Origin: Moniliella sp. 'wahieum'
Taxonomy: Eukaryota
DNA length: 64,000 bases
Direction of reading: 5' to 3'
Assembly: GCA_003971905.1 (NCBI GenBank)
Contig: RSEE01000015.1
Location: 434,001-498,000 of the forward strand
The translations under genes were made by a program, and so were the position numbers. Under the pieces are notes generated by a model. It saw only the letters and a list, made by a program, of their open reading frames with translations, made no database searches and was not told the origin of the DNA. Numbering within the stretch: position 1 is the stretch's first letter; each line of letters opens with the position of its first letter. Of this stretch, positions 2,166 to 55,970 are shown one piece after another.

Positions 2166-3338
2166 GGTCAAGGAGAGATGACACTACTGGGGGAGATATA
2201 GTAATGGCGAGGGGAGAGAGATAGGTGGGTTAGAGTATGAGGAAGAGGGAGGAAAAAAGTGGGTTATTTATCGTCATAGGCCGATGCGCCCGGTAACGAT
2301 CGGCAGCTGGATGAGAGATGAGCGCGACGAGCTTGATGCCCCGTGTCGGATGTAGGTGGCGTGGGCGAATGTATGCGTGACCCACACCACCACCACGCCT
2401 GCGAGTCATCCGAGTCAGGACAACCAACTCGCATCGCAGGATTATTGCGGTTGCCGTCGCTGCCGTCCATCACACCGTCTTTGCGAGTCATTCGAGCATC
2501 CGAGTCAGACACCAGCTCATTGCGGGATTATTTTGGTGCTGTCGCTGCCACTTCTATCACATGGCGCTTGGCTTCAACCAGCGTCCCTTGAACGTGGTGG
2601 GGGTCTACTTTCAGTGGGCGCTGAGCCTCAGCCATGTCGAATTGTGATTCATGCCATCCGCAGGGACCATCGCTTGGCTTTGTTATTACGTTAAACCAGG
2701 CCACCTTCTCACGCTCTTCCCACCCGCCCGAGGTGACCGGTCGGTCACCTGACCTCCCCAAAGAAGGGGCCATCAGGACGTGTACCTGTACTCAGTACTG
2801 ACTCAGTCCCAGAGACCCCCTGTTTCCATCGGGCGAGAAGGTAATTTACCTCCCCTCGATCGTTCAAGGCAGTACGCCCTGGCCACCTACCCAATTGGGG
2901 GCAAACCGAGGCAGTGGCCACGAGCCTGTCGGAATAGTGCGTTCCAAAGCATAATCGATCGTGGTCGAGATGTAAACCCGGCCTAGCCAACGGGCGCTCA
3001 GCGTCAACTTCGACCCAAGCCCATCTGCCCCGCACAAATGCTAGGTTCTCCGATGCGGATGCGCTGGACACGGAACCGGGGTTACCAAGTACGTCGTACG
3101 GGCGGGCCCGCAGGCAGGAGGTGCTTACCACCTTACCAGCGCCTAAGACATTAGGCCCTAGGCTCACTGCCATTGTTACGGTGCCCACTTACCGAGGCCA
3201 AGGACAGTACCAATCCCTTCCCCTAATGCATAGAAGGCCTAGGTGCCCGTACCACTCCAGTGCCGGCCTTCGGTCCAGGAGGCCCGACGGTCGCAGCGTC
3301 GGGAGGAAGGGGGTACCCGGGTACGGATGGTGAACCAG

Positions 3339-10000: not shown

Positions 10001-12895
10001 CACGGTGGCATCTCCTTTGTGCGCAACAGCCGTGGCTGCAAAAAAAGCGTCCGGGACAATATTCTGTTCGGGCAAAAGATGGACATGGAACGGTACAAGG
10101 CCGTGTGTGGAGGCGTGTGCGCTCATGCCCGACATTGAACTGTTTGACGATGGAGACCTCCAAGAGATTGGCGAGGGTGGCATTTCCCTTTCGGGTGGAC
10201 AAAAGGCTCGGGTGGCTTTGGCACGCGCTGTCTACTCCAAAGCACGCACCGTCTTGCTGGACGATGTCTTGTCGGCGGTCGATACCCACACGGCCCAAAA
10301 GTTGGTGGACGAGTGCCTGACTGGCCCCTTGATGCAGGGACGCAGCATCTTGCTCGTCACCCACCATATTCCGCTTGTTTTGCCTCATGTTAAGCGGGTG
10401 ATCAAGTTGGAGCGCGGCACGGTGGTCGCCATGGGTGCTCCTGCCGACTTGGTTGCATCCGGTGCCATCGAATGTCCGCAAGCCTGAGCAGTAAGGGAAA
10501 GAGCAAGTCGCCCGAACCGTCGTCCATCGATCTTATCGACCGTGGAAGAGACGAAAGGAAAGGTAGATGTGGCGGTAGACAAGGGATCCTCTCTTCCCGC
10601 ATCGGGCAGCCAAAAGCCAGGCAAGATTGGCCCGTTGGATGGAAGCAAGGCGTCGCACAAGATTGTCGAGAAGGAGGAGGTGCGGGTGGGACGGGTAAAA
10701 TCTCATGTGTATAGCGTCTACTTACACGCACTGGCTGGTGGATGGTCGCTATGGTCATGCTGGCGTTGGTACTGAACAATGCGACCAGCTTGTTGTCCTC
10801 AGTGTGGCTATCTTACTGGGCGTCCGGGGCAGCGACTGCGGTCAGACATGCGGTCAGGCAACTGATGCCGTCGTTCCCTCACAACCTCGGGGATGGTGTA
10901 TCATTCGCGCTGGACTCCCTACCTCGTTAAGCTGTGTTGCGATTCCACCTTCACGTACGCGCCATGACATTCAGCGTGGCCGAGAAGTGGTGCTGGTTGC
11001 CCCGGCGAGAATGCACCGGGTCCCTACATGCTCATCTTTGCCTTGATTGAGTTTTCTTCCTGTATCTCGGCCCTGGTCAACATCCTGCTGTGCATTACCT
11101 CCCTCCGTGGGTCCCGAACGCTGTTTGCACGGATGCTGGATTCGGTCAGTCACTCCACAACCAGATGGCTGGACAAGACACCTTCCGGCCAGATCCTCAA
11201 CCGGTTCGGCAAGGACATTGAGTCGCTCGACTGGGGCGTTCTCCAAGGTGCCTCCACTGTCCTCATCCAACTCTTCTCCCTGTCACGGCCTTTATCACCT
11301 TGGCCTTCCTCGTACCGGCTTTTATGGTCCCAGCGCTGGGAGTCATGGCTGTACTACTCACGTGCGTACATCCTTTCCCTTCCTTCTCCCGTTCCTTTCC
11401 CCGTTGAACTAGGTTTCTCTCTCCTACCTTCCATGACCCCCCCCCCCGCCTCTCCTAGTTGACCTATACCCGAGACTCGATACTAACCCTCCGGCTCCGT
11501 TCTGTGTCTCCCATAATAGTGACCAAGGTGTACATTGTTTGTTCGCGCGACCTGCGCCGTCTCGAGTCGGTTCACCGTTCGCCCATCTTTAGTGGCTATT
11601 CCGAAGCGCTCAAGGGCATCACCACCATCCGTGCCTTTCGGCCGAGACGCGGTTGCTGCACGAAGTGTACCACAACGTCGACGCCTTTTCGTCGGCACAT
11701 TACTTTTGGTGGATGGCCAACCGGTGGCTGATGCTCCGCGTCGACTTGGTAGGAGGGTTGTGTGTGTTTGGAACGCAGCTCCTCGCTCTTTCCGGTACCA
11801 TGTCAGCCGGCTTGGCTGCGATTGCCATCACGCAAGCGGCCAACTTCACCTTATCATGCTACTGGCTTTCACGCGGCTGGGCCACCGTAGAACAGGAACT
11901 CACGTCCATCGAACGGGTGGTAGATTACTTGCCGCCCAAGTTACCGCAAGAACCTGCGCAGGTGATTGAAGGCCCCCTGCGCCTGCCGCTTGGCCCAGCC
12001 GCAGGCAACGATCAAGTTTGACAATGTGTGGTTGCGGTACGACAAGTCGTTTGATCCGGTTCTCAAGGGCGTCTCGTTTGAGGTTCGGCCGGGGGAGAAG
12101 GTGGGCATTGTAGGGCGCACAGGCAGTGGCAAGTCAACGCGCAAGCAGCTTGTTGCGCTTTGTCGATCCGGACGAGGGAAGCATCTCCATTGAAGGAATC
12201 GATATAAGATCGTTGGGCCTGCACGACCTTCGGTCGCGCATCTCGTTCATCCCTCAAGATCCCGTCTTGTTCCAAGGTACCGTCCGCGACAACCTCGATC
12301 CATTTGAAGAACATACCGATCTGGATTGTCGAACCGTCCTCGCCCAGGTCGGACTCGGTCGCAGCCCCAGTCGCAGCCCCCCACCACCAGGCCGGATCGC
12401 GTACCCCGAGCCGACCCGCCTCCCCGTCCGCTCCCCAAAACGCTCCGCACAATAAGGACCCCGACGAGACAGCACCCCACCTCACCCACAGGAACTCACC
12501 GAGCTCACTCTCGACTCGCCCGTGGCCGATTCGGGGGCAACCTATCGCATGGCCAACGACAGTTGCTCGCCATGGCACGTGCGCTGCTCTCACAACCACA
12601 TTGTGATTGCCGATGAGGCCACGGCGAGCGTCGACTTTACTTCGGACGTGCGATTCAGCAGGTGATCCGTGACCGGTTCCAGCACAACATTTTGCTCGTC
12701 ATTGCGCATCGGCTCACTACGATTGCCCAGTTCTCGCGCGTGCTCGTGCTGGATGCAGGGAAGGTGGTTGAATTTGATACGCCGCACGGTTGCTGGCTAA
12801 GAAGGATGGCTACTTTTATCGCATGGCCCAGCACTCGGGTGTGTTCGACACGTTTCCAGATGGCCGAGGCGAGTGCCAGTCAGAGCTCAGGTTGA
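7066..12895 (+). CDS. Full-length ABCC (MRP/Ybt1/Bpt1-like) ABC transporter
   Basis: TM segments; NBD1 [39 protein letters not shown]2 [14 protein letters not shown] and [19 protein letters not shown]2 [40 protein letters not shown]. Introns near 8301-8391 and 11362-11520. Confidence 0.93.
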
Positions 12896-18573: not shown

Positions 18574-19946
18574 TCATGCTTGCTTGGCATGCTGCAGGCG
18601 CAGGGGCATTCCCTCGGCGTCCAACAACCCCGTCCGGCCATTATCCTGCACCGGCAAAGGCTTCTGCTGTGGTACCTGTTCCACCACCTGCGGCCCGGGG
18701 CCTACTTGGGTATGGATCAGCCGACTAACCGCGCCAACCGGTTGGACAGGGATGACCTGCGGGTTGAATCCCTTGGGCAAGCCAGCGGGCAGCGGTGTCT
18801 GCTCCTGTGGGCCGTGGAAGGAGGCACCAGCACCTTTACCAAGCAAGTTAAATGTGTCGTCGAACGTGGCCGAGGGGAAGTAGTGGCGGATAAGGGAGAG
18901 GACGAGTGCAGCATGTTCCTTTTCGTGGTAGAGCACCGCGTTGGGCCCCGCGTCGTAGGTGTATCCTGCCAGGCGCTTGCCGCCGTCCGCGAGCGAGGCG
19001 CGGTTCAGTTCCTCAATCAGCTGGATCACAGCACGGGAGGTATCGTTGAGGTAAAAGATGGGTGGCTGGGTGTCGAGGCAGCAGCATGAAAGTTATTCGA
19101 GTCAGTCATGGTGAGGGCGGCAAAGGCGTCAAAGTCCTTGGCTTGAATCGCGCTCGCATATCCTCCATCCGCTTGGGCACCACGTGCTCCACGCGCGCCT
19201 GAAGGAACGGGGAGGTAGCAACGGTGCGCTGCATGCCCGCGGTGGATGGAGTGCCCTTCTTAGCGTCGGACACGACACAGATCAATGCCTGCAACGAAGG
19301 CCAGTGAGCTTGCTCGGCCACACTGACCGCCAAACTGTCCTTGCCATCCTCTTCCTTGCCCATCTGCCACGCCACAAAGCCACCATAAGCGAGCGGCAAG
19401 CCGAACCACTGCCCTGCCGCGCGACACGCGTCAACTCCGACACGCTGTAGGCCTCCGTTAGGGAGAAGAGGGTGGCCAAGGCATAGGTCAACGCAGCAAA
19501 GCCCGAGGCGGACGAAGCCAGGCCGGCAGCGGTGGGAAGTTGTTTTCCGACACGACGTGCAAGCCCCATTCGGACAACTGTGCGGGCGCGGGGTAGATCA
19601 GTCAGTGGGTCATCGCGGTAGAAAGAGGGAACGGGGGAGGAAGGACGACGTACCTTGGGCAGGGACGGGTCCTTGTCTTCTAAGCTCTTGCGCATCCTGC
19701 GGATCTCAGCGATACACGTGTCTAGACGTCCGCCAGGTGGATCTTCTCCTCGGTTCCGTTCAGCCAGAGGCGGTCCTCTCCAGGCCACATCGGCTCGGGC
19801 GGACGTCTTGCTCTGGAGCTGGGCCTGGTCGAGAGTGACGCTGACGAGTCGTTGGTGGGAAGGATGAGGGCCGTGTTGCGCTTGCCCCAGTACTTGACCA
19901 CGGCAATGTTGACGGGAGCACTGACAGTGGCTTGGTAGATGACCAT
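18574..19946 (-). CDS. MVD1: Diphosphomevalonate decarboxylase
   Basis: APVNIAVVKYWGKR, PTAAGLASSASGFAAL, ARQGSGSACRSL, DSNNFHA and YTYDAGPNAV motifs. Intron 19578-19653. Confidence 0.96.
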
Positions 19947-20831
19947 GACAGCGGCTAGGTGGATGGATGGCGGTGGCGGAGGACACAACGTGGGAGGTTC
20001 GGGCCAGGCTTCAAGCTTCAAGGAGGATGGGATGGATGATGGGACGGCGAGAGGCAAGAAGGACGCAACAGCAGGCGTAGGGGCAGTGTGGAGCTGAGAC
20101 AGCGGTCGATCCTGGGCCGCGCGTGGCTTGAAATCATCTCGATCACCCAGTCTCAGCGCCAGGCACGACGGCCGCCGCGCTGTCGTGACGAGCGGTGCTG
20201 CTCAAGCAGGCGGATCCCGAAGGGGTCTTTTTTTACCAACTACCACACAGCCCTAAGGACCACGACATTGCGTCCAACCTGCGGTGGGGGCTTATTCGTG
20301 ATCGGCGTGCGATGCATCGTCAAGTGCGTGTGGTTGGTGTAACCACCAAAGTCTCGGAGATTGAAGAGAGCGAAGAGTACTTTCACTCGTGACCCTTGGG
20401 GTCCCATGTGGGTGCATGGGCGTATGGGCGTTGCCGCACTCGCAATTCGATTGCTTTCAGGGATACATTGGTGGAGAGGGTCAAAGCTCAAGAGGCGCGC
20501 TTTGCCGTTCCCGGGGGCAGTGGGATTGACCTTCCTTTCCCCCACTCAGACGAGGACATGCAGGAAAGATAACACAGGTACCACGGCCCTCCTTTTGGGG
20601 CGAGTACCGCCTCGAGCCGCTCAAGGTAGAGTACTGGATCAGCCGGCCTGACCAGTTGCACGGCGACCGGTTGCGGTACGTAATTCTTTCTCATCTATCT
20701 TGCTACTCTTCGTCTTGATAGCGTCGCCAAATGCCTGTCGTCGTGAAAGTCTGCACCATTTGGGGGGGGGTGGAAGGAGCGATACGAGTAGAAAGACTAG
20801 GAATACAATTGGTTCATAGGCCAAGACGCAG

Positions 20832-36503: not shown

Positions 36504-39500
36504 ATGAAGATCACACGCCACCCAAGCGTCTTGGCCTCCGGTGCGTGTGCCCCTGGCCCCTTTGTGCCCCCTACTCACCCTCTTTCTCCCTCGCAGTTGC
36601 CCCAGATTGCCGCGATTATTGAGCGTGTTCAGGCAGCCCCGGAGGAGGACCTTCCTGGCGTGTTGGACAGCGTCTACGACTGGCCCTGGCCCCGCGGCGA
36701 TGCTCACCACTGGACCCAGACGCTGAACCGCTTCGATGCCATCCTCGAGCACACCCTGACCCAATACGGTGTGCAGATTTGCAGTACCATCAGTTCACCC
36801 CGCCACACCAAGCGCCTTCTTGTTCCATACTCGTTTTAGCCGCCTTCTCCTAGAGAGCTGCACCAACCGTAAGATCTACAACTCGTATGAGGTACGTACC
36901 TTCTCTCTCGCCTCCCTCAAGCTTGCTTGCCCCGTCGGACGGTTCTAACCTCTCCTTCCCACTACAGCATCTCCGCAGCTTGCTCGTAACCGACGATTTA
37001 GATGTGCTTGAAGAAACGCTGCGGCTCCTTCAGCGCTTGGCCCAACAGCATGCTGCAAAAGGCGGTTCTCGTGCCCAGGAGCTGGTTGAGCAGGGTACTG
37101 TGCCTCAGCGCCTCCTCACCCTTGGTGCCACATGGGCTCCGATGGGATCGGGCTTAACTTTGGTCGACCTTGCTAGTGACAACTTTGAGCCTGGACCCGG
37201 CTTTGACACGGTCCGCTTGCCATCCAACGCCCCGCTCCGACAAGCTACCCGAGCCTCATGACAAGTCCCTCTCGCTCGGCCCACCGCCAATCTCCGGCGC
37301 ATCGGGCCCCAGCTACACCAAGTTCACAACAACTAGCGCCTACCATTGATCCCGATCTGTCATGTCCATCGACCTGGGTGAACCGGTTCGGGCTGCCTCT
37401 TCCTCTTCTCCTGCCCACCCACGCCCTCCTCGTCCAGCCCCAGCCATTCACACCACGTTTCCTTTGCACCCGGAACAGGGTCTGGGTCCAATGTGGGTCG
37501 ACACACGGCCCATCGGCGCCCCCCCCGGAGACGGCGTCGGTGATCGAGCTGCGCAACCTGGCGTCCCAGGGCAACCATTGATGGATGTTGTTACCGACGC
37601 GATTGAGACGTACAAGATTCCACCCGAATCCCAGTTTGAGCTGTTTCAACGGGTGCGCTCCGTTCTCGCGGGTTATGACCCTTCTGCCCGCAAGAAACTC
37701 ATGTCATGCCGCCTGTTAGCTTTGGCCGTGTATGGGCATGTGGTGTTGGAGGATACGGCTCTTAATGAGCTCTTTATGTTGGCCCCGGAGATTGCTCGCT
37801 TGATTGGTACCCTCGTGTCGCCTGAACACAAGATTGACCGAAACATTGTGTCGAGTGCGTTTTTATGCGCTGGAAGGATTGGCCAAGTTCCGTACCCGCT
37901 CCTCCGACGTCTTTACGTCCATTGGCGTGTCAGTCAATCATGGTGCACTCTTGCAGAATCTCCGCATGCTTACTAGCAGTATGGATGCCTGCCCTTCCTC
38001 CCACCCGACGCTACATTGCTTCCACCTCCGTATGCCTGGAGTGATCCGGGTACCTCTCTCGGCACCTACGCCGATTCCATCTTTGGCTTACTGGGGGCAA
38101 TCGTGAATGGCCGCAACGCAAGCCACATGACAATGATCGTCGCTGCCTCATGCCTCTCTTGGTCAAGATTGTCAACAATGTCGCTCGCGGGTCCACCTCG
38201 CCCAAAGATCGGTCGCTCGTGCTCTCGGCTTGATCGACAGTTTCATCATCTTCTCCACCTCACCGCCGGCTTTTACCCAATTCTGTGACGCGGGTGGGCC
38301 CGACGTGTACGTGGAACGCATCAAAGCAGAGGTGGAATACGACATTGCTCATCCTGAACCCGAGGGTGCTCGGCTGACGACCGTGCGGAGCGAGTGGGCC
38401 AAGCCGGCTGACAACTTGTACGGGTACCTGTCGCAACCGAGTGCAACCCTGCTGCGTAACATCCTCAAGTACATTGGCAGCATGATCACGTCGGCTGGAA
38501 CGGATCAGTTGCGCAACTTGATTGAAACGTCTCTGCCAGACTCTGTCATCCAAATCATGGCGCACCGCCTCATTTTTGGCCCACAAATCCTCGCTGTTGC
38601 GATCGGCGTGGTGGCCATTTAGTGCACAATGAGCCCACGAGTCTGGTGGTGGTGCAGGAGAAACGGATTCCCGAGATGCTTTTGACCTGATTACCGACGA
38701 CATTGAAGCCAATTTCGATTTGATCAGCACCCTTCCCAGCGTCTGTTCGGCCATGTGCCTCAACCCGGTTGGTTTGGACCTGTTTAACCGCTGCATGGTG
38801 GCGCGCAAGCTCATGCGTCTCCTTCTAGACCACCGGCACATTGAGGTGTTGGAGGACATGGACAATGCCATTTTGTTTGGCACTCGATCGATGAGCTTGT
38901 CCGTCACCAACCGTCGGCGCGGGGCGATGTTATCTCGGGCATCTTTACGGCTTTGAACGCGATCAACAACAATGCTAAGAGCATCGCTCGCCGTATGGAG
39001 CGGCATCCTTTGATGATGCCTGTCGCCAAGCAGGCCTTCCCGAGCCGCCAAGCAAATTTTTGATCTGGAGCAAGTCCCCAGACCGAGGCCACTAAAGTAG
39101 TCGCTCTCGCCCGCCCTTCTGTTACCTTGGCCGACCTGTTTGATGGAGAGGACGAGCGGCAAGGTAAGAAGGACGATGCCAATATTTACAACGGTGTTAT
39201 CGCGCAGATGGACGTCGCGTCCCGATTCATGGAAGGGTTCTTTACCACCGCTTCGCATTGTCATGCCTTCATCACCAAGGGCGGGTTGGTAGAGCTGCTG
39301 AAGTTCTACGATGCCACGGCACTGCCATACAACTTCCTCTCTTCCTTTCGCCGCAGACTCGCTTGCCAACCTGCTGGTGCTCATGACGGAGTCCAGAGCC
39401 ATTTCGGTCATTTACTCCTTCATGGATTCAATTTCCGAGTCCATGCAACAAACGAGTGCGTGTGGGACGACAAAGCCTGGGCGTCGAACGGACAGGAACT

Positions 39501-42500
39501 GCCCTTTTCGCCGCTCGACTTCTTCGCCCCCTCTGACGAAGCTACCTGGACAAAAACCAATGGTGTCTTCCGCAACTTGGTCTACCTCAATACCAAGCTC
39601 TTTGTTCTGGTGATGTATCAGCCGTTCAGCTACCATTCATATTCGCGTCCGCTTTCGGCCCTTTTCCCTGCCCTCAATACCAGCCGCGGCAAGGGCGAAG
39701 GGCCCTTCATGCGCAAGCTCGGCACGTTGCTGCGGCATTCACTCTGGATGAACATGTTGCTCAAAGCAGCTGTGCCCCCTCGGGAGGCGGGGGTGGAAGG
39801 CAACACGGCCACCGCAAGGTATCCGGCCCTGTGCAAGATATTGTGGATCATCTTCCTTCTAGTGGTCGTCCAAATGCGCCTTCGAGCTCATCCGCGGTGT
39901 TGGAAGCAGCAGAGCCGCCAGGCAGGCGGACAAGAGTTGCGAGGTGTCTGAGGCGGTCCGGCAGAACGTCAAGGTAGTGCGGTACACTATGTCGCATATG
40001 ACTCAACGCTCAAGGCCATGCATCGCGAGGTGGTCCGCCTCTGTCCAAGCCGGCTGACCCCACGACTCGCAAAAACGTTCACCACATTGGGGACCATTGC
40101 CGACACGATGTTCAAGCGCTCGAATCGCGCAAGAGCGGTAACTTGCCCAACGATATGGCCTACACCACTGTCGTGGTGGATTGGATCGACAACCTTCTTT
40201 ACGAGCGGAAGGGGTCGCGGGTTACCGTGAGCTGTTTGCTGCTGTACGAGTTCTTCCACCGGGCGGTGTTAGCGCATTGTTGAGCCAGTTCCATTTGATG
40301 CTGGCCCAGATGGACCAGATTTTGGACACTCAATCGGGGGAGACGACGGTGCCCGATAACGAGGATGTTGCCAGCAGCCTGAGCCAAGCGTGCGGCGGCT
40401 TGCATCTGCCTCCGGCTGATGCACAACCTGGTCACGTACCGCATCACGAACGACCTGGTCCAGCTCTCTGCTCTGAACCAGCAGTACCCTTCCTCCAACC
40501 AAGAGTGCGTGGTTGACATCATTCGCCTCCAGGTCATCATGGCGGTCCAGACCATCTGGCGTAAGAGTTGGTTGCCCACTTTGCCGCTCGTCATCATTCG
40601 CAGTTTGGTCAAGATCATCCTCGCTACTCTCAACAAGGATGATGCTAGCCCCGAGTCCGGCTCGGGCAGTGGGAACGGCAGTTCTCTACCTCTTCCCTTG
40701 CTCAACATGACCCTTCCGGGCATGAGCAACCCTCTGAGTCCACTCGCTCGGACGGCAGCACTACTCGCTCTTCGGGCACCTTCCCCCCTGTGCAGTCTAG
40801 CGGCGACGTAGTCCTGACCGACCTGGGCTTCACTTCCGGCTCCGTCCAGTCGGCGTTTGGAAGCGGAGAGGACTCGCGGGCGGGGCTACTGCGGCTGTTG
40901 AACCAACAAGCCGAATCCACTCCCACCCCCCTCCTGTCACGGCACCGACCCCGCTCTGGCCATCGACGGAGGCAGGATCGTCTTCAGAGCCTTCTCGTCT
41001 GCTCCGGAACGCTCGCAAGCTCCCCCTCCTCATCCCCTGTGGCAACCGGGATCGGAAGGCACGGTTTCTAAGCAAGTTCTTTCGGATGAACTGCGCTCGA
41101 TTCAAAAGGAGATTAGCTCTACCGTCGTCGCTCTTATTCTTGAACTTGCGAAACGCACGAACCTTTGGTGTTTGAGGCACGCGACGCTGTCCATCTCGTT
41201 TCCGACAAGCTCACCCCCATTCATCACGCAACGACTTCATTCGTTCGTCCCAAGCCGAGGTGGAGAGGTTGGATTGGAAGGAAAGACAAACGAGCGTGAT
41301 GCGTTGCTGGGCAAGATGCGGGTCTATCTTCACTTCTTGGCCATTGTGCACAACTCGGAGGGCCTGCGGCAGGTGATCGACATTGACACGGCCGTTACCA
41401 TCATCCAAACTTTGCAGCGGTTGGGTCAGGCTGGCAAGAAGTGGGTGAGCGAGTTCACTCCCCATCTTTTTGATCGCGAGCGAAATTTTTGGCTGGAGCG
41501 AGAAAATCGAGCCGACGCCTCCCTACCTCGAATCCGAGTGGCAAGCAGGCACCCCACCCCGTCTCGACCGCGGGTCGATCCAGACAATCGCCTAGGCCAA
41601 TTTGAGGACGTTTATCTTCAAATGGCCTTTGCCGTCTTACGGGAGGAAGTGCCTGACGCATGGAGCACGGAAACTCTTTTGGCCACGTACCGCCTTCTGG
41701 TCATCCTTACCCGGCGGCCCCTTCTAGCGGGCAAAGTGGGTCAAGGGGACGATGAGCTTGTCGTTCTTGTTCGGCCTTTCAAGAAGGGGTTCCCGAGTCG
41801 ATCGTGCCGCTCTGTCAGTCGTATTTGGTCACCATTTTACGGCATGTGATTGAGCAGCCTGAAGTGCTGCAACAGCTCATGTTCCAAATGCTGCGCTCGG
41901 CGGTCCACTCACGCGCAGCCAAGTTGTGATCCCCAACTTACTCGGTCAAGTGAGCTCGGCCGTGTGGCGGGACCCGAACACGTTCTTTGGTGTCGCCAAG
42001 AACCATCTTGAGCTCATCGATTTCAATCGCACCGGCACGCCCCCCGCGTTCGGCTGATTGATGATCGTGAGTCCGAGGACAAAAAGGAGGGAACCGAGTC
42101 GAACACTGATGGGCCTGCCGTGGCTCCTGCTCTGCCTCAAATTCCCGTAGGGGCAGCCGGGCCATCTGGAACGTCCCTTCCTACTGCGCCCAAACCACCC
42201 GTTTTCGACGTGCCCGAAACCAGTGGTGGTGGGGAGACGGAGAAGCTGATCCACAAGCTCCCTCAGACCACGGAGGTGTCGGATCATCTGATCCACTTCC
42301 TCATTTCGGAGCTCACCACGGGACCTTCCGTGTCATCATCTGTCGTGGCAAGCGAGACGGCCGAGCAAGAGACGAAGGAATCGGTTGAGGCGTCCTCGGG
42401 CGAATCCCAAACTGGGAAGGACAAGGCGAGTGTCCCGCCTCCCTCTGAGCCCGACGCTGGTGCAGCTGCTCCGTCGAGTGGTGATGGAGTCAATACGAAC

Positions 42501-45500
42501 CCCGTCTTGAAGCAACCCAAGCCTACCTCCGCAAAAGAGCAAAGCCAAGCGGACCAGTCGCTTTATTACAATGGCTTCATCCTCCAAATTTTAGCCGAGC
42601 TCTTGTCTTCGTACGACTGCTGCAAATTGAGTCTGATGAACTACACGCGCAAGCGCACCCAGCCTGCTGCCCCAGCTGCGCCTGCCACGCCCTCTACAAC
42701 CCCCGCTAAGCTTCGTGGGACCACTGTCTCGACTCTGTTCCATGAGCTCGTTGCGCTCGGAGCGTATAGCGACAAGGACTGGAGAAAGTGCAAGGCGCTT
42801 ACCAATTGGCTCATGTCGGTCGTTGTGGCTCTGACGTCGGATACGGCAAGCAACGTTTCGCTTCAAGATCTGAGTGCAGACGTCATTTCGGTGCGCAAGG
42901 CCGTCCTTGACGGTCTGAGCAAGAGCATTCGCGACGTGACAACTTCGACCGAGCACTGGCATCCAAGGGTGGCAAGATCCTGGTGCTGTCCGACCTGTGC
43001 TTCCGTTTGCTGACGGTCAAGCCCAACCAGAGCTCTTTACTGCGTCAAAATGAGGACCTAGCCTTCACATGGCCAAGTTGATGTTGGAGAAGAACTTTGT
43101 CCTTGTCTTGACTAATACCATCACCGACATCGATTTGTCCGTTTCGCCGGCCAAATCGATTCTGACCAGCGTTCTCAAGCCACTCGACTTTCTTACCAAG
43201 GTTGCCATCCGCATGGGCCGGGCAGAGAAGAAAGATTCGCGCGAAGATGTGCCGATCGAACTTTCTTCCGACGATGAAAGCACGTCCTCCTCGATGGAGG
43301 ACATGGAGCATGGCCGTGGCTCCCGTCGCGAGACACCCGATTTCTACCGCAATTCGTCGTTGGGCATCCACACTGGCGACCTCGAGTCGGGCAACTACGA
43401 TGACGATGTCGGCGATGGCGAGAGCGGCGAGGATGAAGAGGACATTGAGATGGAGGAGTATGATCATGACCACTCCAACAGCGATATGACGTATGTCTTG
43501 CCTCCTCTTTTTGCGCTTCGCACTGATGTTGCATTCATACTGACTTAACCCATCTGAACAGCTCTGAGTCGGATGACAGTGAGGATACCATTGACGATGA
43601 CGACATTGACCTGGAGGACATGTCTTCGGTGGATGACGATTCGTCTTCGGAAGACGAGGACGAGGACGACGACGACGATGATGACGATCATGATCACAGC
43701 GACATGCTTGAGGCCGAATGGACGGATGAGGTATGTCCCCTTTTTTCCAGCTTCCCCTCGCCTCTGCACTGTGAATACTGACGCCCAGAGTGCTTTCAGG
43801 ACAATGATAGCGATGGCGACTCGGACAATGGCGAACTGGATATTGTCCTAGAGCACGATGGAACGAGTGGCAGCGACCCTCTGGTTCCGACGCTCGAGAT
43901 TGACGAGGTGTGGGCGCCATCGGAACTTCGTTCTGTCTTTAGTGAAGGGGAAGACGGTATGGACGTGATCGATGAGGACGAGGGGTCCTCCAATGATGGG
44001 TACGATGCTGCCGGCCTTGGCGACCTCTCGCTCGAGGATGGCTACAACCCGTCATCGAACACACTGGATCTGTTTGGTGCCAATTGGGCGTGGGTCAATC
44101 ACTCGGACAGCCCGGCGCGTGGGAGACATGGAACCTGTGGGGTCACGAACCGGAAGGCTGGCGGTCTCGTCTTGTCACTGGGTCCGGGCGCCGGAACGGG
44201 ATAGACGAGGCGGCGTCGCACCCACTTTTGGTGGACCAGTCGGCCGTGCCCGACGGAAGTTCTGCCCTCTCCAACCGTCTCCCCGGTCGGCGGCGTCGTC
44301 TCCATGGCGGCCTGCACCATTCGGGCACGGACCTCAGCGCCTTGTCGTTCGATATGATGGGCAATAGGACCATGCATCTTCTAGAGACGATACTCGAACG
44401 TGCTCAGGGGTTGACGCGGAGCGACGACACGGCCCGTTCCCGCTCAGGTGTTGAGGAAACCAACGGCGCGTCCGGCCCCAATCGCGGTCGACCGAATGAA
44501 CCCGATGCGGACAAGGTTGCAGCTGCGGATCCAGTATCACTACTCCAAACCTTCAAGCCCATGAGCACGTCGAACCGTTGGTTACAAGATGCTTCTCTCG
44601 CCCATGCACGCTCTGTCAACAAGCTGGAGCACGCATCGTTTTTCCGACACGAGCTGCAAGCGGTTCTGCTTCCTGCCTACTGGGACTCTCAGAAGAAGCA
44701 GAAGGAAAAGGAGGCCGAACGAACTGCTCAGCTTCAGCGTAAGCTCCAAGAGGATGAAGAAGCGCATCGTCGGAAGCAGGAGGAGAGTGGAGATCATGAG
44801 CGCATCCAGGCACCAGAAGCAAACCAGCCGCCGGCGCAAGCCTCCGACACGGAAATGGCGGATCGCCCGCGCCCGCGCCCGCACCGGGCAAACTCACCCT
44901 TTTCGGATGGGGTACCCTCCGATCCTGAGGACCTAGCAGGCCGGAAATGCCGGTGAGGGCGATGAAGAGGAAGAGGAAGAGGGGGAGCGGCAAACGATCA
45001 CGATCGGTAGCCAGGTGGTGGATATTACGGGTACCGGAATGGATCCCGAATTCCTGCTGGCCCTCCCAGACGCTATGCGGGAGGAGATTGTGGAACAGCA
45101 CCTGCGCGAACGTCATGCTGAGACGATGAGTCGCGACCAAGGCGTGACGGCAATCGAGCCTGAGTTCCTCGCTGCCTTGCCACCCGAGATCCGTGTGGAG
45201 GTACTTCAGAGCGAGCTCATGGCAGCCGATCGTGCTCGCCGGCAGCAGCAACGCGAGCAAGAGGAGCAAGAGCGCCAAGCAGAGCAGAGTGCGGCCCATG
45301 AACCTCGGCCGACGACGGAGCGAGTGCTTCTCAGCCGGGTGTACCTGCCAACCTGGCCGTTCCCGCTGCCTCGACGACTCCAGCTGTCGCAGCCCCTGCA
45401 GCCGACAAGACTCCCGCCGGGACGCGATTCAACTACTAGACCGTGCTGGTGTCCTGACGCTGGTTCGGATCCTCTTCTTCCTGACCTGGATCCCGCGGCC

Positions 45501-46804
45501 TCAGGCCTCCATCGGGTTCTGGCTTCCGTTTCGGAGAACGCAAAGACTCGCACCGATGTGCTGCGTCTGCTGCTTACCATTTTGACCGAAGGGACCAGTA
45601 CACCCGCGGCAGTTGATCGGTCTTACGCTGCAATCAGCTGTCGCATCCACCAAGCACATGGGACGCCCAGCAAGGGTGCCAAGCGTGGGCCCGCTCTTTA
45701 CCAGTCGACGGGTTCCCCGATTAGCATCCAGGGAGAGAAGGCCCCGTTCCTCATGGCCCTGCGTTGCATTGCGGCAATCACTTATCTTGTCGACGTTAAC
45801 CCGGCCGTGAGCGAGTGGTTCCTCAAGGAGGAAGTCAGGTCGTCCAAAAAGGGCAAGGGCAAGGAGAAGGAGAAAGAAAAAGAGAAGGCGTCGGCAGAAC
45901 CTCCTGTTGGGCTTCTACTTGCTCTCCTTGACCAGCCTGTATTCGCGGAACACAACACGCTGCTTGACAGCCTGATCCACGCTTTGCACCTGATCACCAA
46001 GCCACTTGCCAAGCAAGCTGCTGCCACTCCCGCTGCAGAGCGTCCTTCCTCCCAGACGCTGCCGTCGCTTCAGCCAGCGCAAGTGGGCCGTCTGTACCCA
46101 CCGCGGGCCCCTCAGCTAGTCAGAATCCTTCAGCGCTGCCCGAACAGGGTGCCAGTGATGCCCCTGCCACCTCGGCTGCCGCTCTACCGGAAGGAGCTGC
46201 TGAGAGTGGGGCACCTGCTGCGGCTCCCCCACGGAAGGAGCTACTGGGGACGAAGGAGACGAAACCATGGCAACCGAGGCGCCCCCTGGGGTGGAAGGAG
46301 GGACGAGTGAGGGTCCTACAGCTTTGACCCCACATCCCGCCCGAGCGTCTGGCAGCGGTGGTGCGTCCACTCGCGACGCCTATCTCAGCTCGGGGTTTCC
46401 AGTCGACTCTGGCGGTGGCGTCGAATCTGGCGCATGTGGCCGGAGCACGGGAAGTGATTCGGGATGCGTTTGTGCGCTCGGCGACTGAAGCGTCCAAGAC
46501 TCTCATGTCGGATCTGGACGCGCTACTTGCAGTGTTGCCGCCCAAGCCGGTCGCGGTTGAACAAGATGCCGGCGAGACGCCGGCCACGGCACCGACGGGA
46601 CCCGCGCCGGCCTCTTTGCCAGGTTCGGTCTCTGCCGGAGGGCCTGAGGCGATGCAAGGCGTCGAAGCTGGCGACACCTCGCAAGATGGGCTAGACAACA
46701 AGTTGCAGTCGCCTGCGCTTGCTACGCTTGCTTCGCCAGCGAGTGCGCAGGCGGTGCTACTTGCGGTCTCTGCGGCGCTTGACTACCTGCTGACGGGCAA
46801 GTAA
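36504..46804 (+). CDS. TOM1: Tom1/HUWE1-family protein: N-terminal solenoid (DUF908, DUF913), acidic linker and UBM repeats, without HECT domain
   Basis: WPWPRGDAHHWTQTLNRFDAILE, CTNRKIYNSYEHL, VHNEPTSL, ETPDFYRNSSLG, VDITGTGMDPEFLLALPDAMREEIV, IEPEFLAALPPEIRVEVL, RDAIQLLDRAGVLTLVRILFF. Introns about 36541-36596, 36892-36967, 43491-43561 and 43732-43799. Ends LDYLLTGK-TAA. Confidence 0.9.
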
Positions 46805-47161
46805 CAGCGTGTGGGCTGCTTGCCAATCCTGTCCATTTCTTTTTTTTTCCCCTGTATGAATCCATCATGCCATGAGCTTGCGGAAGCTCCCCACCAAGTT
46901 CCTTAAGTTTACCAATAAGCGCATCAAACTTCCCTGCCAATCAATTGAATTTCGAGGCCCGTGGCTCTTGTGGCTTGTGACTTAGTGCCTAGACTTCGAA
47001 GAGACACAACTTGTTCGCCATATGCTATCTTGTTCTCCCATAGCCAACAAGCAGTGCAGTGCTTTCTAGCAGTTTTCCCCACAGAAGCCTCGCCGCTGTC
47101 CGAATTGGCCTGCTCTCCACCACCTCCCACCTCCCCCTCACTCCCTACCACCGCCCCGCTC

Positions 47162-47849
47162 ATGTCTGTGCGCGCCATCCTCACCGCCTATTATGTCCCC
47201 CACAGCTGCCCCCGCCCCTGGCAGTAGCTTCAAGGAATTGGCTCAGAATCTGGCCTCTGTCCTGTGCCTGATCCAACTGCCGTGGTGGGCTACAAGAAAA
47301 CCGTAGCTGTGGTTAACAAAGTTTTCGATACTGCCAACGCTCTGGTTGCCTTTCCTCCATCGGTTACCGACCCTGCCACTGGACTCATGTCCAGTGTCGC
47401 GCTCGTCGAAAAGGACATTCAGGCTACTGTCTACGTTTCCGTCCCGCTTCGACTGAGCCCTCGGCAGCCGACTTCGCACTCTTTCTTGTGCTTTATCCCA
47501 TTCTTGCCCCAGCCCCCGCCTCTATCCAGCACACTTTCCCTTCCACCGCCTGCTACCCGTCCCAGCCCCTATCCCCCAGCCCCCATCTTCTCCCTTTCGT
47601 CCCTTAGTCCAGGTAGCCGTGAACAAGACCGGAGCGTCCTTCCTGTCTTCAGCCGGATCTACGAAGGGCTCCCTACGATTCAGTATGCCGATCGAGCCAA
47701 AGAGGCCCGAGAAGGCCAAGGCCCATTATAAGCCAAGTGGCAGTGTCGAGCCGGCCTTTCCCCCTGCTGTTGTTGGGTCGGTCCCTGGGGATCGGATCTA
47801 CGTCGATGGGTGCAAGGGATTTGAACCCGAGGTCCAGCTTGAAGCTTAA
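47162..47849 (+). CDS. Small orphan protein, probably two exons
   Basis: ATG at 47162. Coding-like VGYKKTVAVVNKVFDTANALVAFPP...VALVEKDIQATV, then a pyrimidine-rich gap ending in CAG at about 47612, then AVNKTGASF...DRIYVDGCKGFEPEVQLEA*. Confidence 0.4.
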
Positions 47850-48174
47850 CCCCAAGAAAAATCTTTATGAGGCGGTTCAGCCTCACTACCCCATTACCCC
47901 ACTAGCTATACGAAGATCTGGGGTTGGAAAGGGGTAGGACCGGCGGATGAAAACGCAGCTACAGCCGAGCCAAGGTGCGCGTGCTCCAGAGCGGCAAGGG
48001 ACATGTCTGCCACACGACCACCCTAGCTATTGCGACTCTCTCGTACAGTCCTACCTAGGGATGAGCATGATCAACTGCGTGCTTTGCCCCTTGGGCAGCT
48101 TTCGTTCTTGTTACAATAGGTATGGTAGGCTAGCCAACGGCGCAGACTTCATCACATAATATCAACCCCCCCAA

Positions 48175-49205
48175 TCATTGCAAATCTGCCACGCAACAGG
48201 TCAGTCTCGCCGAACAATCAAGCAAAGAAGAGGGACTCACATTCTGCCCGAAGTCTCCTTGTGGGCTTGGAGGAGCCACTTGTCCGTATCCTCCTTGGAC
48301 GGTAGCTGTGGCGGCTGTAATTGCTCAGCTGGGATAGCAAACAAGTAATCGGCCACTTCAGCTTTGAACGTATTGGCCGCCTCTGCATCGTCCACCTCCA
48401 TGGGCTCATCTTGCTGTGTTTCATCCTTCTTCTTGTCCTTGCCCTTGCCCTTGCCCTTGCTCTTACTTTTGCTCTTATCCTTTTGTGACCGAGAAGGGGC
48501 AGAGGCGTCGGAGGGGACAACGTGAGCCTCGCGTCGAGGCATGGGGAAAGGGTCGGGGTGACCATTAGTATACCATCCTTCTACCTCCTCTGGGTCGTAC
48601 CCCAACTCGACGAGAACCAATCCGACGTGGGACTTCCAGTCGTCCTTTTCTTGTGCCTGTTCGTTGGCCAAGAGTAAGGGATCGCGATCGTCCTCCAACC
48701 CATAGTAGACCGGTGTTTGGTGGTAGTACTGACGGTAATGGGTATACTGCTTGTCTTGCCGTTCCTCTGCGGTTTCAGCCTGCTTGGCAAGCAGTTCTTT
48801 GACACCCGGCAGATCCTTAGCTCTGCCAAAATACTTGTACCCTCGGGTGCCTGGCACCTCTGACCCAGTATCGTCCGTGACGAACTGAGTCCGACTCCAC
48901 CGTGGTCCACCCAAACTGGTAATTTGTTGTTCCCACCGACCCTTTTCGCTCATGAGCTTGTTGATCTCGTCGTTCAAGTCGCGCACCTCAAAGTCGGTCA
49001 GACCAAAATCTTGAATCCGAGCCACCTTGCGACTAATCTCAGCTACCACTTGCCCACGCCACTTTTCGGCCGCCTTGATGTTCTTGACGCTGCTGGGCAT
49101 GCGTGGACGACGAACTTGCTTGCGGAGGTTGATGCCCATCTCGGCCGCTTGCGCCTCGCGAAAGCGATAGAGCATCGACTGTGCCTTCTCCTCATTGCGC
49201 GCCAT
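48175..49205 (-). CDS. ISY1: Pre-mRNA splicing factor Isy1 (NTC complex)
   Basis: MARNEEKAQSMLYRFREAQAAE...AEKWRGQV...VRDLNDEINKLMSEK...RGYKYFGRAKDLPGVKEL. Terminal intron 48186-48240 (GTGAGT...CTGAC...CAG). Confidence 0.96.
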
Positions 49206-49860
49206 GGTGGGTCGAACGTAGGAGGTGGATTGGGGGTGTTTATTGGGGTTGGGTGTTGGGCCGCGCGACGCGAAAACTAGTGGTGGTGGTGATGGTGGGG
49301 GTCGTGGTCTGGGAGCGGCCGGCCAAGTGATCGCAACCCACATTCAGACGTTCGCCCTTGAAGCTTGAAACCGTGTCCAGCCAGCTTAGGTAAGACGGCA
49401 CATTTCGATGCAGTCGCCTCTATTTATTTTCTGGTAACCCTTAGAATCCTACGCCTGCCTTGGAACGGGTGTCTACGGACATTCATTGCTTCCTGGCCAC
49501 TGCGCCCAGCAGCGAAAGCAACAAGGTGGATCATAGAATTGGATGGGAAGGGGGGGGGGGGGGGGAGATACGCCTCGTGGTATGCAACCCAGCCGCACAG
49601 GACCGTCGAAAGAAGAGCAAGAGAGAGACCACAAGCAAGGTGGAACCCCCTCGTTCTTCGCCCACGTCCGCCCAGGAAGACCAAAACCGAACAGCCCCAA
49701 AACAAAGAGGCAGGGGAAAATCAGAGGGAATGGGGAGAGGGGAGAGGTTTCAGTCTCTTAGGCCGGGCGGACAGGTAGGACGGACCCAAGCGGGGGGAAG
49801 CCGGGCGGCTCGGGCGTGCCCATTTGGGCGCGCCCTGGAGGAGCAGGACGCGCAAGCGAG

Positions 49861-51254
49861 TCAGTCGTCCGATCGTCCGTCATAAACTCCTCGTCTTCGT
49901 CCTCGTACATGGCCAAATCCTCAAACGCCACCTTGTACCGCAGCAGGCCACCAATGCCACCAAAGCCGCGGACGAATTGGTTGCCTTCGGTGGAACGGTC
50001 CGTGACAAACTCGAGGTTGGTACCAAAGTCTTTGTAGTGTTCGGCGAGCCATTCGAGCAACGGCATAGGTTCATCTACCTGCTCCAAGTCGGCGCCGGTG
50101 AGTGGGTCAATGAACCGCGACCGGTCCTTCTCTTGCTCCTTGTTGAGCATGAGCACGACCGTGTGGCCCTCGGAGTCTTTGAGTTCGTACCGCGTGATCT
50201 CCAAGTTTTCCCACACAATGAGCGTCTCGACTGCACCCAACTCGAGCGCCTTGAAAGTATCGTCGATTCCAAAGCAGTACTTGCCCGTCTCGAGGCTGAT
50301 CTCGTCAAAGTACTTTTGGATCAACTTTTTCTCCTGGACAAACTTGACGTTCTGCAGCGACTCGGACGCCTCCTCGATCGCCTGGTTGAACCCGTTCTCG
50401 CCTCCGTACGACACGTCGACGGTGCGGATGAGCTTGGCACTGAGACGGGGGTCGAAGAGATCAGACTGAGCAAGGACCGTCTTAAAGTCGGCCGAACCAG
50501 CCAAGACGAGACCAGCAACATTGCACTTATTGTCGGTGATAAAGTGTTGGGTGGCCAACTCGGCGACTTTGCGAACGTAGTTGTGCCGCGCCTCTTCACG
50601 CAGACGGGAGAAACGGACGGCGGACTGACCACCACGCCCGTGCTTCTTGGGCAAGTCGACAGAGAACTTGTGAAGAACGGTACGGGTGTTTCCAGACACC
50701 GTGCCATAGAGGGAACCGTTGCCGTCCATGATGATAAACCCAAACACAGCGTCCGACTCGAGCAGTTCCGACAGCGCTTCGGTGTGGAACTTGTTGTCGC
50801 AGAGATAGAGGGAAGTGTTGATGGGCTTGAAAGGCTCAAAGCTAAAGTTGACCTTCTTCTCCTTGCCTTCGTCGGTAAGAATCGTGCCACAGTAGACGAT
50901 GAGCCGTTGGGGGCACCTTGCTGTACAGCTTGAGACGCTGCTGGGTCGAGGTGATGGCACTGAGCACCGAGAGGCGGTTGACACGCGACTTGATGTTGGA
51001 CGCTGTGCCATACTCACCGGTGAGCATGTTGGTCGCCTGGCTGATCTGGGACTTGGGCGGGAGAATAAGACTGATCATAGAGGTACCGGCGCCACGAGCA
51101 TTGTCCAGGCTCTTGACCAGCTTCTTGATCTTCCAAATCTGAGGGACGAAGAGGGGTCAGCGAACGAGACGCAAGGCAGAGCGAGGGCAGCAAGGGGAGG
51201 GCATACCTGGATGTTGCTGTCAGCGTCCTGCCCGCTAGGGTTGGTGGTCGACAT
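49861..51254 (-). CDS. SUP45: Eukaryotic peptide chain release factor 1
   Basis: [23 protein letters not shown] and [11 protein letters not shown] motifs. Intron 51139-51206. The stop is inferred after one indel in the acidic tail. Confidence 0.97.
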
Positions 51255-53972: not shown

Positions 53973-55970
53973 TTATTCGGCGCGGGGCAGGGTGAGCAAG
54001 ATGGCGTGCTGTCCTCCAGCCGAGGTAGCCAAGCTCACAGCCTGGCGTAGGGATTTGCTCGTGAGCAGTGTGGGCGTCTCGACCGTCTCCTCACCGCCTT
54101 GTCCGAGCTCCGAGTTCTGTCCCAACCCCCAGGTGTAAGCGTGGCCATCGCGAGAAACGGCGACCGAGTAGCGGGGGCCAGCGGAAACTTGGACAATGTG
54201 GCGATTGTCAGGGAAGGGAATATGAACGGGCTCGGTCAGGTACTCGTCCGGGGGAGGACCGCGTACCGGCGGCAAATCCTCCGCTGAGAGCACGCCTGCA
54301 AACGCGCCCTCGGTACCAATGTGAGCCTCTTTTTTGCTTTCATTTTGGCTTCGTAGGCCTTCAACTCTTCCTGCAACTGTACTTCGCGCTCGGCCGCCCA
54401 GGCCTCCCGTTCCTTGATCAGGGCAATTTTGGCAGGATGATCTTCGCCCAGGCCCAGCTCATTGCCGTCGCACCGTCCCGACCCCCACACCTGGCCATTG
54501 TCAAAGAGGAACAGGGTGAAGTGGGAGCCAGCGTCGATCTGAATCACTTTGGCGCCATTGTGCTTTTCAGGCAACAATGCCTCGACGAGCAAAGGCTCGA
54601 CGACTTGGTCCTCGGCCGTCTCCATGCCCAACTGACCAAACGTGTTGAGGCCCCAGGCATACACCTTGCCCGCTTCGTTGACCGCAAAGGAGTGATACGA
54701 TCCACACCCAATCGTAACAATCTTACGGAGCGCGAGCTTAGCTGGAAAAGGGCGTTGAGCTTGCGCCGCTCAATCACACGGCGACCCAACTGGGATTGTT
54801 GGCCGTTGCCCCAACTCCAAACTGTGCCCTGTTGAGAAAGAGCAAGCACGTGGTCCTCCCCGCACACCACAGCTGAAAACTTGATCTTCTCGAGACCGTG
54901 AAGCGGGCGAGGGGTGAACTGCAGCTTGGCTGCTGTCGGGGTCGGATCAAATCCAAGCAGGCCATCATTGCTCTGAAAAGAAGGAAACCCAAAAACAAAA
55001 AAATCAGGAAACAGTTAGTTAGTTCATTCCATCAGTAGCCCGCCAGCTCGACCCGGTGCTCCCGATAGCTACCACGTACCCGGAAAGACCCCAGACGCGC
55101 AACTCGCCAGCCTCATTCAGAGCGACGGAGCACGAGTTAGAAGCGGCGACACGAGTAGCACGGAACTTCTCCACCTTGCCCACCTTTCCGCCATCGGGAC
55201 CGTCGCCGCCAATCACGCCCTCGCCCGAAGGCGACATGGCCTCAACAGGGGTGGGCACAGTTTCGAATTCTTCCGAATCGCGCTCCGGATCGCGTGTGGT
55301 GCTACGGCCCAGCGCAGCATTGTCGTTAATCCCCCACGTCCATACCTGTCGTAACGCGTAAGTAGGAGAAACGAGTCAGTAAGTCAATTCAGAGCCTGAT
55401 CTGGAACCTGCTACGATTCGTCGATGAAAGATGGAAGGGTAGCACGTACCGTGCCATTTGAGTCGAGGGCGAGCGTGTGAAGACCGCCGGCAGCAACCTG
55501 TTCCAACCCATGCGGACCGAGCTTTCCTTCTGCCGTCTTCTCTTGAACCCACGCATGGACCCGCGGGCGCTGAATTTCATCCAGAGCATCGGTGCCCAGT
55601 CCGAGCTGGCCCATATCCCCGTTGCCCCAGATGAAGAGGGAACGGGTGGCTTGCGTGCCTTCGGCCGGCTTTGCCGCGTGCAGGTGGGTGGGGGCGGGAA
55701 AGGGGGAAGGAGCCGGGTTGGAAAATCCTGACTTGACCACGCGGGGTTTCTTGGTGGGCTGTGCTTGGGCTGGCGCGGGGCTGGACTCGCGCTTGGCTTG
55801 CTTGGCTGGTCAGCACCTTCGTCCGGGGTGGCCGAGCGTGGACGCTTGGCGCGCTTAGCCGTGCCATTGGTCTCGGTCGAAGCCGTTCCAGTGGGAGCAG
55901 CGGCGGTGGGTGCAGACGCCGCGTCTTTGGACGACGGCTTGGGGGCAGCACGGGCGCGTCTGGGTGCCAT
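53973..55970 (-). CDS. RCC1-family Ran guanine nucleotide exchange factor (Srm1/Pim1)
   Basis: Repeated blades WGNGDMGQLGLG, VAAGGLHTLAL, TWGINDNAALGR, WGNGQQSQLGRR, WGLNTFGQLG, TWGLGQNSELG and SAGGQH. Basic N-terminal tail. Two introns near 55345-55449 and 54975-55078. Confidence 0.92.

Follow-up and report, generated by a model that had tools for sequence, protein, structure and literature searches.

A Tom1/HUWE1-type scaffold gene that stops short of its HECT module points to a ubiquitin ligase encoded as two genes in Ustilaginomycotina

Is a gene that carries the long scaffold of the Tom1/HUWE1 ubiquitin ligases, and then stops just before the catalytic HECT module, a damaged copy, or is it one half of an enzyme whose other half is encoded elsewhere? 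The question is raised by a gene on a 64-kb stretch of contig RSEE01000015.1 of Moniliella sp. 'wahieum' (positions 434,001 to 498,000 of the forward strand; this whole stretch is called the window below, and positions are counted within it). The original prediction for this locus, made from the letters alone, proposed that the scaffold gene, here termed Tom1-N, is part of a split ligase and that its HECT part might be a separate gene. Our analysis supports this proposal. We conclude, with a probability of roughly 0.7, that the window contains the non-catalytic N-terminal half of a two-gene Tom1/HUWE1 ligase of an Ustilaginomycotina fungus, that the two halves reassemble, that the frame breaks in this copy are assembly errors, and that the partner HECT gene of this organism lies outside the 64 kb.

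Tom1-N is about 2,900 codons long (2,893 on the best frameshift-aware path), running from an ATG at 36504 to a TAA stop. The Tilletiaria anomala orthologue (P0041, 3,365 aa) was found by tblastn to map with residues 1-3365 onto 36504-46801, its first residue aligning with that ATG, and identity was 38-51% in the aligned blocks; identity to relatives is 40-56% across all frame segments of the gene. The region is fungal, with a GC content of about 0.58 and ISY1, eRF1, an RCC1-like gene and ARPC4 as neighbours. Pfam was run on the 65 plus-strand open reading frames (ORFs) of at least 60 aa that overlap 36.0-48.3 kb, and the features that define the Tom1/HUWE1 subfamily were found: DUF908 and DUF913 at the N-terminal end, and UBM (DUF4414) repeats before a C-terminal solenoid (Table 1). 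This order supports a Tom1/HUWE1 orthologue and is the same as in S. cerevisiae Tom1 (PDB 9egk, 9dns/9dnt, 9eld, 9mhp) and human HUWE1 (7jq9, 7mwd), in which DUF908, DUF913, an acidic region, UBM and the C-terminal solenoid follow one another. The conserved scaffold described from the letters, including its RDAIQLLD region, was thus recovered, as was its end at ...ALDYLLTGK-TAA. There was no Pfam UBA match in the window gene, only a weak, degenerate UBA-like match at 40811-40900 (plus strand, E 0.18) in a frameshifted region; the UBA domain is clear in relatives, namely in most of the fungal and all of the Ustilaginomycete proteins listed.

No HECT domain accompanies this scaffold in the window. 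Pfam detected none in the 65 ORFs described above, in 110 ORFs of at least 85 aa downstream or in 125 ORFs of at least 125 aa upstream. With five Tom1 fragments as tblastn queries, four of them HECT-bearing, all 13 matches fell within 43833-46801 and nothing was found beyond, and eight Ustilaginomycotina HECT halves searched at E<=10 gave only noise in the window (best E 0.07). The predicted absence of HECT motifs from the remainder of the window therefore holds for the whole 64 kb. Since the window gene carries no HECT domain, its product is a Tom1 scaffold orthologue and not itself a HECT ligase.

The same stop was found in relatives. The closest one in the database is a 970-aa protein (P0001, 53% identity) whose C-terminus, ...LRALDYLLTGK, ends as the window gene does. 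When it was used to search for longer proteins, the best 120 of 404 matches were examined, and 36 of these 120 were without PF00632 (HECT) and ended 5-58 residues past an LRxLRALDY-type motif. The distance from motif to end was five residues in 28 of them, as in the window, six in one and 32-58 in seven, the named members of the last group being Exobasidium and Meira. Of the 36, 21 are named, and every one of these comes from Ustilaginomycotina (Tilletiaria, Tilletia, Ustilago, Sporisorium, Pseudozyma, Kalmanozyma, Thecaphora, Testicularia, Violaceomyces, Malassezia, Microstroma, Exobasidium and Meira), and the eight genera checked in the taxonomy belong to Ustilaginomycetes, Exobasidiomycetes and Malasseziomycetes. 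The remaining 84 proteins, from Agaricomycotina, Tremellomycetes, Mucoromycota, Glomeromycota and chytrids, all have PF00632 and, where the motif was found, continue for at least 450 further residues beyond it. Whether the split is lineage-wide, which had been left as a question, can thus be answered: the 36 of 120 relatives that end at this place spread it across Ustilaginomycotina. The 28 gene models that end at the very same codon come from several annotation pipelines.

Metagenome contigs gave the same picture. A pattern scan with the last 158 aa of the window gene produced 596 pattern matches and no relatives; a second scan, with a degenerate nucleotide pattern of the terminal helix, yielded five true loci (three distinct sequences) and one false one (L004). 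In each true locus the 6,057 nt available of Tom1-N form a single open frame with the same end codon, and no HECT domain was found in the 0.15-3.3 kb available downstream. On one contig (L003), Pfam also reported a NAD-GH match antisense to an HSP70 gene, at 8707-9396 (minus strand) and 8953-9396 (plus strand); NAD-GH is known as a spurious family opposite HSP70.

Where, then, is the HECT module of these fungi? Five unsplit Tom1 proteins were cut just past DYMY, and a profile of their C-terminal 517-545 residues was searched in proteins of 284-954 aa. Its matches were fragments from other fungi together with HECT-only Ustilaginomycotina proteins of 540-774 aa, which had 96-100% profile coverage and about 60% identity. 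The HECT-only proteins include UMAG_03442 of U. maydis (571 aa) and proteins of Testicularia, Violaceomyces, Sporisorium, Thecaphora, Moesziomyces, Kalmanozyma, Meira, Exobasidium, Parajaminaea, Ceraceosorus and several Malassezia and Tilletia species. In the alignment, each HECT half starts from a Met of its own, with a leader of 40-200 residues that is not conserved and has no counterpart in unsplit Tom1. The leader is followed by (D/E)E..L..IYE.F.F..LW..LS......AQ(I/V)LLPLIES(M/L)MVV, the stretch that stands behind DYMY in unsplit Tom1, and the scaffolds end where unsplit Tom1 has ...LKTIDYMY. Both halves are kept in every species named in both lists, of which 12 were counted, and the proposal of a separate HECT gene is thereby borne out in the same species that have stopped scaffolds. 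The halves lie on contigs that differ in length in U. loliicola, Testicularia, Thecaphora, Ps. flocculosa and Tilletia. For Exobasidium rhododendri (P0069/P0203; UZJ54305.1/UZJ54316.1) they share a 5.45-Mb contig and are 11 locus tags apart, which may be a trace of the rearrangement by which the gene was split. Two records labelled as the fern Adiantum nelumboides (P0281, P0283) share 90%-identity clusters with the scaffold and the HECT half of Meira miltonrushii, and are likely to be fungal (Exobasidiales) contamination of the fern assembly.

The two halves fit together on yeast Tom1 without a gap. The tail of P0001 aligns to Tom1 2309-2761, its residues 865-969 corresponding to 2670-2761 of 9egk, and residues 59-571 of UMAG_03442 correspond to 2762-3268 of the same structure (E 3.5e-175). 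The break therefore falls in a variable loop, at 2761|2762 of yeast Tom1, and the halves tile without overlap and without loss. Whereas Tom1 and HUWE1 are single chains, the Ustilaginomycotina chain stops at the equivalent of Tom1 2761 and has its HECT module on a separate gene. Annotated members of such pairs (the Tilletiaria anomala scaffold KDN52289.1, the HECT half UMAG_03442, and UZJ54305.1 with UZJ54316.1) place the C-terminal end of the scaffold where the window gene has it; the window copy differs from the annotated scaffolds in its many frame breaks and in reading AVSAA for RSLRA. In the available part of a structural preprint on Tom1p, residue 2888 is the last of the Body solenoid and 2889 the first of the HECT domain, ring closure is aided by the first HECT helix, and the Head domain touches the final ARM-like repeat (10.1101/2024.07.08.601072). 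Since the homology of the HECT gene starts at 2762 and, on that account, the Body extends to 2888, the HECT gene carries the last ~127 residues of the solenoid.

Conservation on both sides of the break is high. The catalytic A-H-T-C-F-N is invariant in 40 of 40 HECT halves, as is most of the HECT core, and all 32 scaffolds compared have an unchanged L-R-x-L-R-A in the terminal helix, which is among the most conserved parts of the scaffold tail. For a maximum-likelihood tree, 17 named HECT halves and 20 unsplit Tom1 C-termini were picked from 160 for their names and taxonomic spread. All 17 HECT halves formed one clade, with a support of 100 in the SH-like approximate likelihood ratio test (SH-aLRT), as sister to Agaricomycotina. 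Within the clade the order tracks taxonomy and branch lengths are ordinary, in agreement with one fission event at the base of Ustilaginomycotina.

Judged from these gene and protein sequences, Ustilaginomycotina encode one ancestral Tom1 as two genes that are both conserved across three classes, are exactly complementary and have their catalytic residues intact. The scaffold gene specifies a protein of 2,800-3,800 aa that ends in ...LRALDYxxTG(R/K)-stop. The HECT gene, unlinked or only loosely linked to it, specifies 540-774 aa: after the leader come the final ~127 residues of the solenoid, then the first HECT helix, and lastly an entire HECT domain including its catalytic Cys. The two polypeptides would then reassemble non-covalently. 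By analogy with the solved single-chain structure, the terminal ARM-like repeat on the HECT protein would pack against the highly conserved helix at the end of Tom1-N and also touch the N-terminal Head domain, and a closed ring would be rebuilt, as in yeast Tom1 and human HUWE1, with HECT on its rim. Such an arrangement would amount to a two-subunit giant HECT ligase, in which the HECT module is expressed as a subunit of its own and docks into the Tom1 ring by one solenoid repeat, so that its supply or docking could be regulated apart from the scaffold. We consider the odds on this last proposal to be about even.

A different outcome of the same fission is that the halves no longer cooperate, Tom1-N having become a non-catalytic scaffold that binds ubiquitin or serves as an adaptor, and the small HECT protein a free-standing ligase. 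Unlinked genes in most species and the unconserved leader gained by the HECT half would suit such independence. The ~127 solenoid residues kept on the HECT gene, on the other hand, would have no obvious role without a ring, the last helix of Tom1-N is invariant in every scaffold compared, and both halves are retained in all 12 species named in both lists. We therefore regard independent halves as unlikely.

The second set of doubts concerns the window copy itself. The gene is not one uninterrupted frame, a point that the original prediction had missed: at least ten in-place frame switches backed by many orthologues were found, near 36828, 37861, 38617, 38680, 38883, 41800, 42975, 43060, 45477 and 46333. 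At these junctions consecutive orthologue residues sit on adjacent bases in different frames, mostly at short homopolymers. The segment with the RDAIQLLD region, for example, is delimited by indels near 45417 and 45478. A frameshift-aware path of 2,893 codons through Tom1-N contains 16 frameshifts and nine intron-like skips, whose donors are mostly poor, and is free of in-frame stops; only a single gap in the gene resembles a canonical intron (Table 1). Stop counts inside raw high-scoring segment pairs (HSPs) are uninformative, as the HSPs overshoot the frameshift points. An initial gene model, which permitted no stops and no introns other than GT/GC-AG, had 17 'introns' with mostly non-canonical donors, and was dropped after contiguous HSP junctions showed in-place frameshifts. 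Close to the C-terminus the window reads LLAVSAALDY where relatives have LLR(S/C)LRALDY; read in the shifted frame, these bases give RSLR, and one extra G plus one missing G would explain the difference.

Breaks of this kind are also found outside Tom1-N. The eRF1 (Sup45) gene at 49761-51156 (minus strand), about 3 kb downstream, consists of two overlapping ORFs and is broken at a G5/C5 run near 50905-50915: residues 6-85 of the first ORF correspond to human eRF1 13-92 and residues 54-401 of the second to 89-436, with no intron-sized gap. eRF1 is an essential gene. Because it has the same kind of break right alongside, the breaks in Tom1-N are read as indel errors of the assembly, an interpretation that we hold with high confidence. 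The mevalonate-diphosphate decarboxylase gene MVD1 (18577-20201, minus strand), also essential, an ABC transporter (8393-11459, plus strand) and the RCC1-like gene (53976-55809, minus strand) each consist of ORFs in different frames that match consecutive Pfam profile positions. Their breaks are consistent with indel errors throughout the window, and some of them may be introns.

If the frameshifts were real, Tom1-N would be a decaying pseudogene in this organism. The count of 16 shifts on the best path, at least ten of them well backed, would agree with decay, as would the alteration of the otherwise invariant RSLRA and the single open frames that the loci of relatives maintain over the last 6 kb of Tom1-N. 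Against decay stand the homopolymer-type break in an essential gene 3 kb away and the broken MVD1; no stop is needed in the homologous frames, and identity to relatives holds in every frame segment. In our view a pseudogene is quite improbable. The statement that the scaffold looks maintained thus stands for the lineage, in which the terminal helix is conserved, and is weaker for the window copy with its many, most likely artefactual, frameshifts.

Joining of the halves at the RNA level, which had been offered as an alternative, would involve cis-splicing to a distant exon or trans-splicing from a donor, and a donor-like AA|GTAACA does span the stop of the window gene. This context is not conserved, however, the three distinct metagenome relatives having CGA TAG GGG, AAG TAG TGT and AAA TAG AGT at their stops. 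Moreover, the HECT halves start with a Met and a leader that unsplit Tom1 does not have, the halves are on different contigs in most species, and 28 gene models end at the same codon. We accordingly give RNA-level joining very little credence. A related idea was that the R/K codon and stop are a fossil splice donor, namely an ancestral AG|GTAA that came to be read through, which would place the origin of the break at an intron; it was rejected because the three distinct relatives use TAG and have no GT at that place. Finally, a misjoin or truncation near 46.8 kb that removed the HECT exons might be suspected of an assembly so visibly prone to indel errors, and is extremely improbable given a protein end identical in 28 relatives and five metagenome contigs and the normal genes that follow.

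Several points nevertheless weigh against the two-gene reading as applied to the window. The HECT partner gene is absent from the 64 kb and is seen here in relatives alone. The best 120 matches may also fail to include species that have an unsplit gene or lack one of the halves, and early branches of the Moniliella type as well as Pucciniomycotina are poorly sampled, the latter subphylum contributing one poor Phakopsora model (P0025) that spans the junction. The stop-free path through Tom1-N is partly built in, because the scoring penalised stops more heavily than pairs of frameshifts. In addition, break density is about 1.6 per kb in Tom1-N, whereas eRF1 has a single break over 1.3 kb and ISY1 and ARPC4 have none, and the otherwise invariant RSLRA is AVSAA in this copy; decay of the window copy therefore keeps the small probability assigned to it above.

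The coordinates of Tom1-N, its parts and its surroundings are listed in Table 1. The T-rich tract, the small ORF and ISY1 on the opposite strand all lie downstream of the scaffold as first described. For the 167-aa ORF, no Pfam family was found even at E<=1 and no usable Atlas match was obtained, and it may not be a gene.

Table 1. Tom1-N and neighbouring features in the 64-kb window.
Feature	Position	Strand	Basis
Tom1-N (scaffold half, Head-Neck-Body solenoid)	36504..46804	+	tblastn of 35 Ustilaginomycotina scaffolds, 486 HSPs
DUF908 region (ARM-like, Tom1 Head/Neck)	36760..38103	+	PF06012, 4 ORFs in different frames, E 3e-06 to 1.8e-15
Canonical intron, 76 nt, GTACGT...CTACAG	36892..36967	+	76-nt gap between consecutive residues of 27 orthologues; used by frameshift-aware path
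DUF913 region	38137..39948	+	PF06025, 4 ORFs, E 4e-19 to 6e-06
Two UBM ubiquitin-binding repeats	45021-45110 and 45153-45215	+	PF14377, one ORF (44937-46307), E 7.6e-18
RDAIQLLD-region segment RRDAIQLLDRAGVLTLVRILFF	45415..45480	+	Three-frame translation; frame differs from both flanks; junctions with 21 orthologues
Last 25 codons LASPASAQAVLLAVSAALDYLLTGK	46727..46801	+	Conserved terminal helix, aligns with yeast Tom1 to residue 2761
Local compensated +1/-1 shift (putative)	46760..46780	+	Window AVSAA vs R(S/C)LRA in 36/36 relatives
TAA stop at lineage-wide Tom1-N end	46802..46804	+	End residue same as P0001, 28/120 relatives, 5 metagenome loci
T-rich tract, presumed 3' untranslated region	46836..46848	+	Sequence
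167-aa ORF, proline-rich, low complexity	47228..47731	+	Between Tom1-N and ISY1
ISY1 splicing factor gene, convergent neighbour	48240..49343	-	Pfam PF06246, E 3.7e-79

Database names for the two halves include 'DUF913-domain-containing', 'related to TOM1' and 'related to ubiquitin-protein ligase 1', and none says that they are halves of one enzyme. In the available parts of a survey of fungal HECT genes (Marin 2018, PMC5913265), U. maydis is given one TOM1-type HECT gene, 33 of 204 TOM1 sequences are described as 'potentially truncated' or with duplicated domains, and a split TOM1 in Ustilaginomycotina is not mentioned. Nor is a split Tom1/HUWE1 mentioned in the available portion of a 2026 review of full-length HECT structures (PMC13196369). 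We found no literature report of a split Tom1/HUWE1 in a search that covered neither supplements nor the fusion/fission study of Leonard & Richards 2012 (cited in PMC6926304), which might list the fission.

Because the fission is a rare genomic change that Ustilaginomycetes, Exobasidiomycetes and Malasseziomycetes have in common, it is a marker for the monophyly of the subphylum. For annotation, the records now called 'DUF913-domain-containing protein' and 'related to ubiquitin-protein ligase 1' could be described as two subunits of Tom1, and gene counts based on HECT domains will misdescribe the TOM1 architecture of Ustilaginomycotina. To our knowledge, all solved HUWE1 and Tom1 structures are single-chain. 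A split carried by a whole subphylum suggests that the covalent link between HECT and the ring is dispensable, and marks a place at which the enzyme can be cut. U. maydis and Malassezia are genetically manipulable and would thus be systems in which the assembly of the ligase in trans, its stoichiometry and its regulation could be studied.

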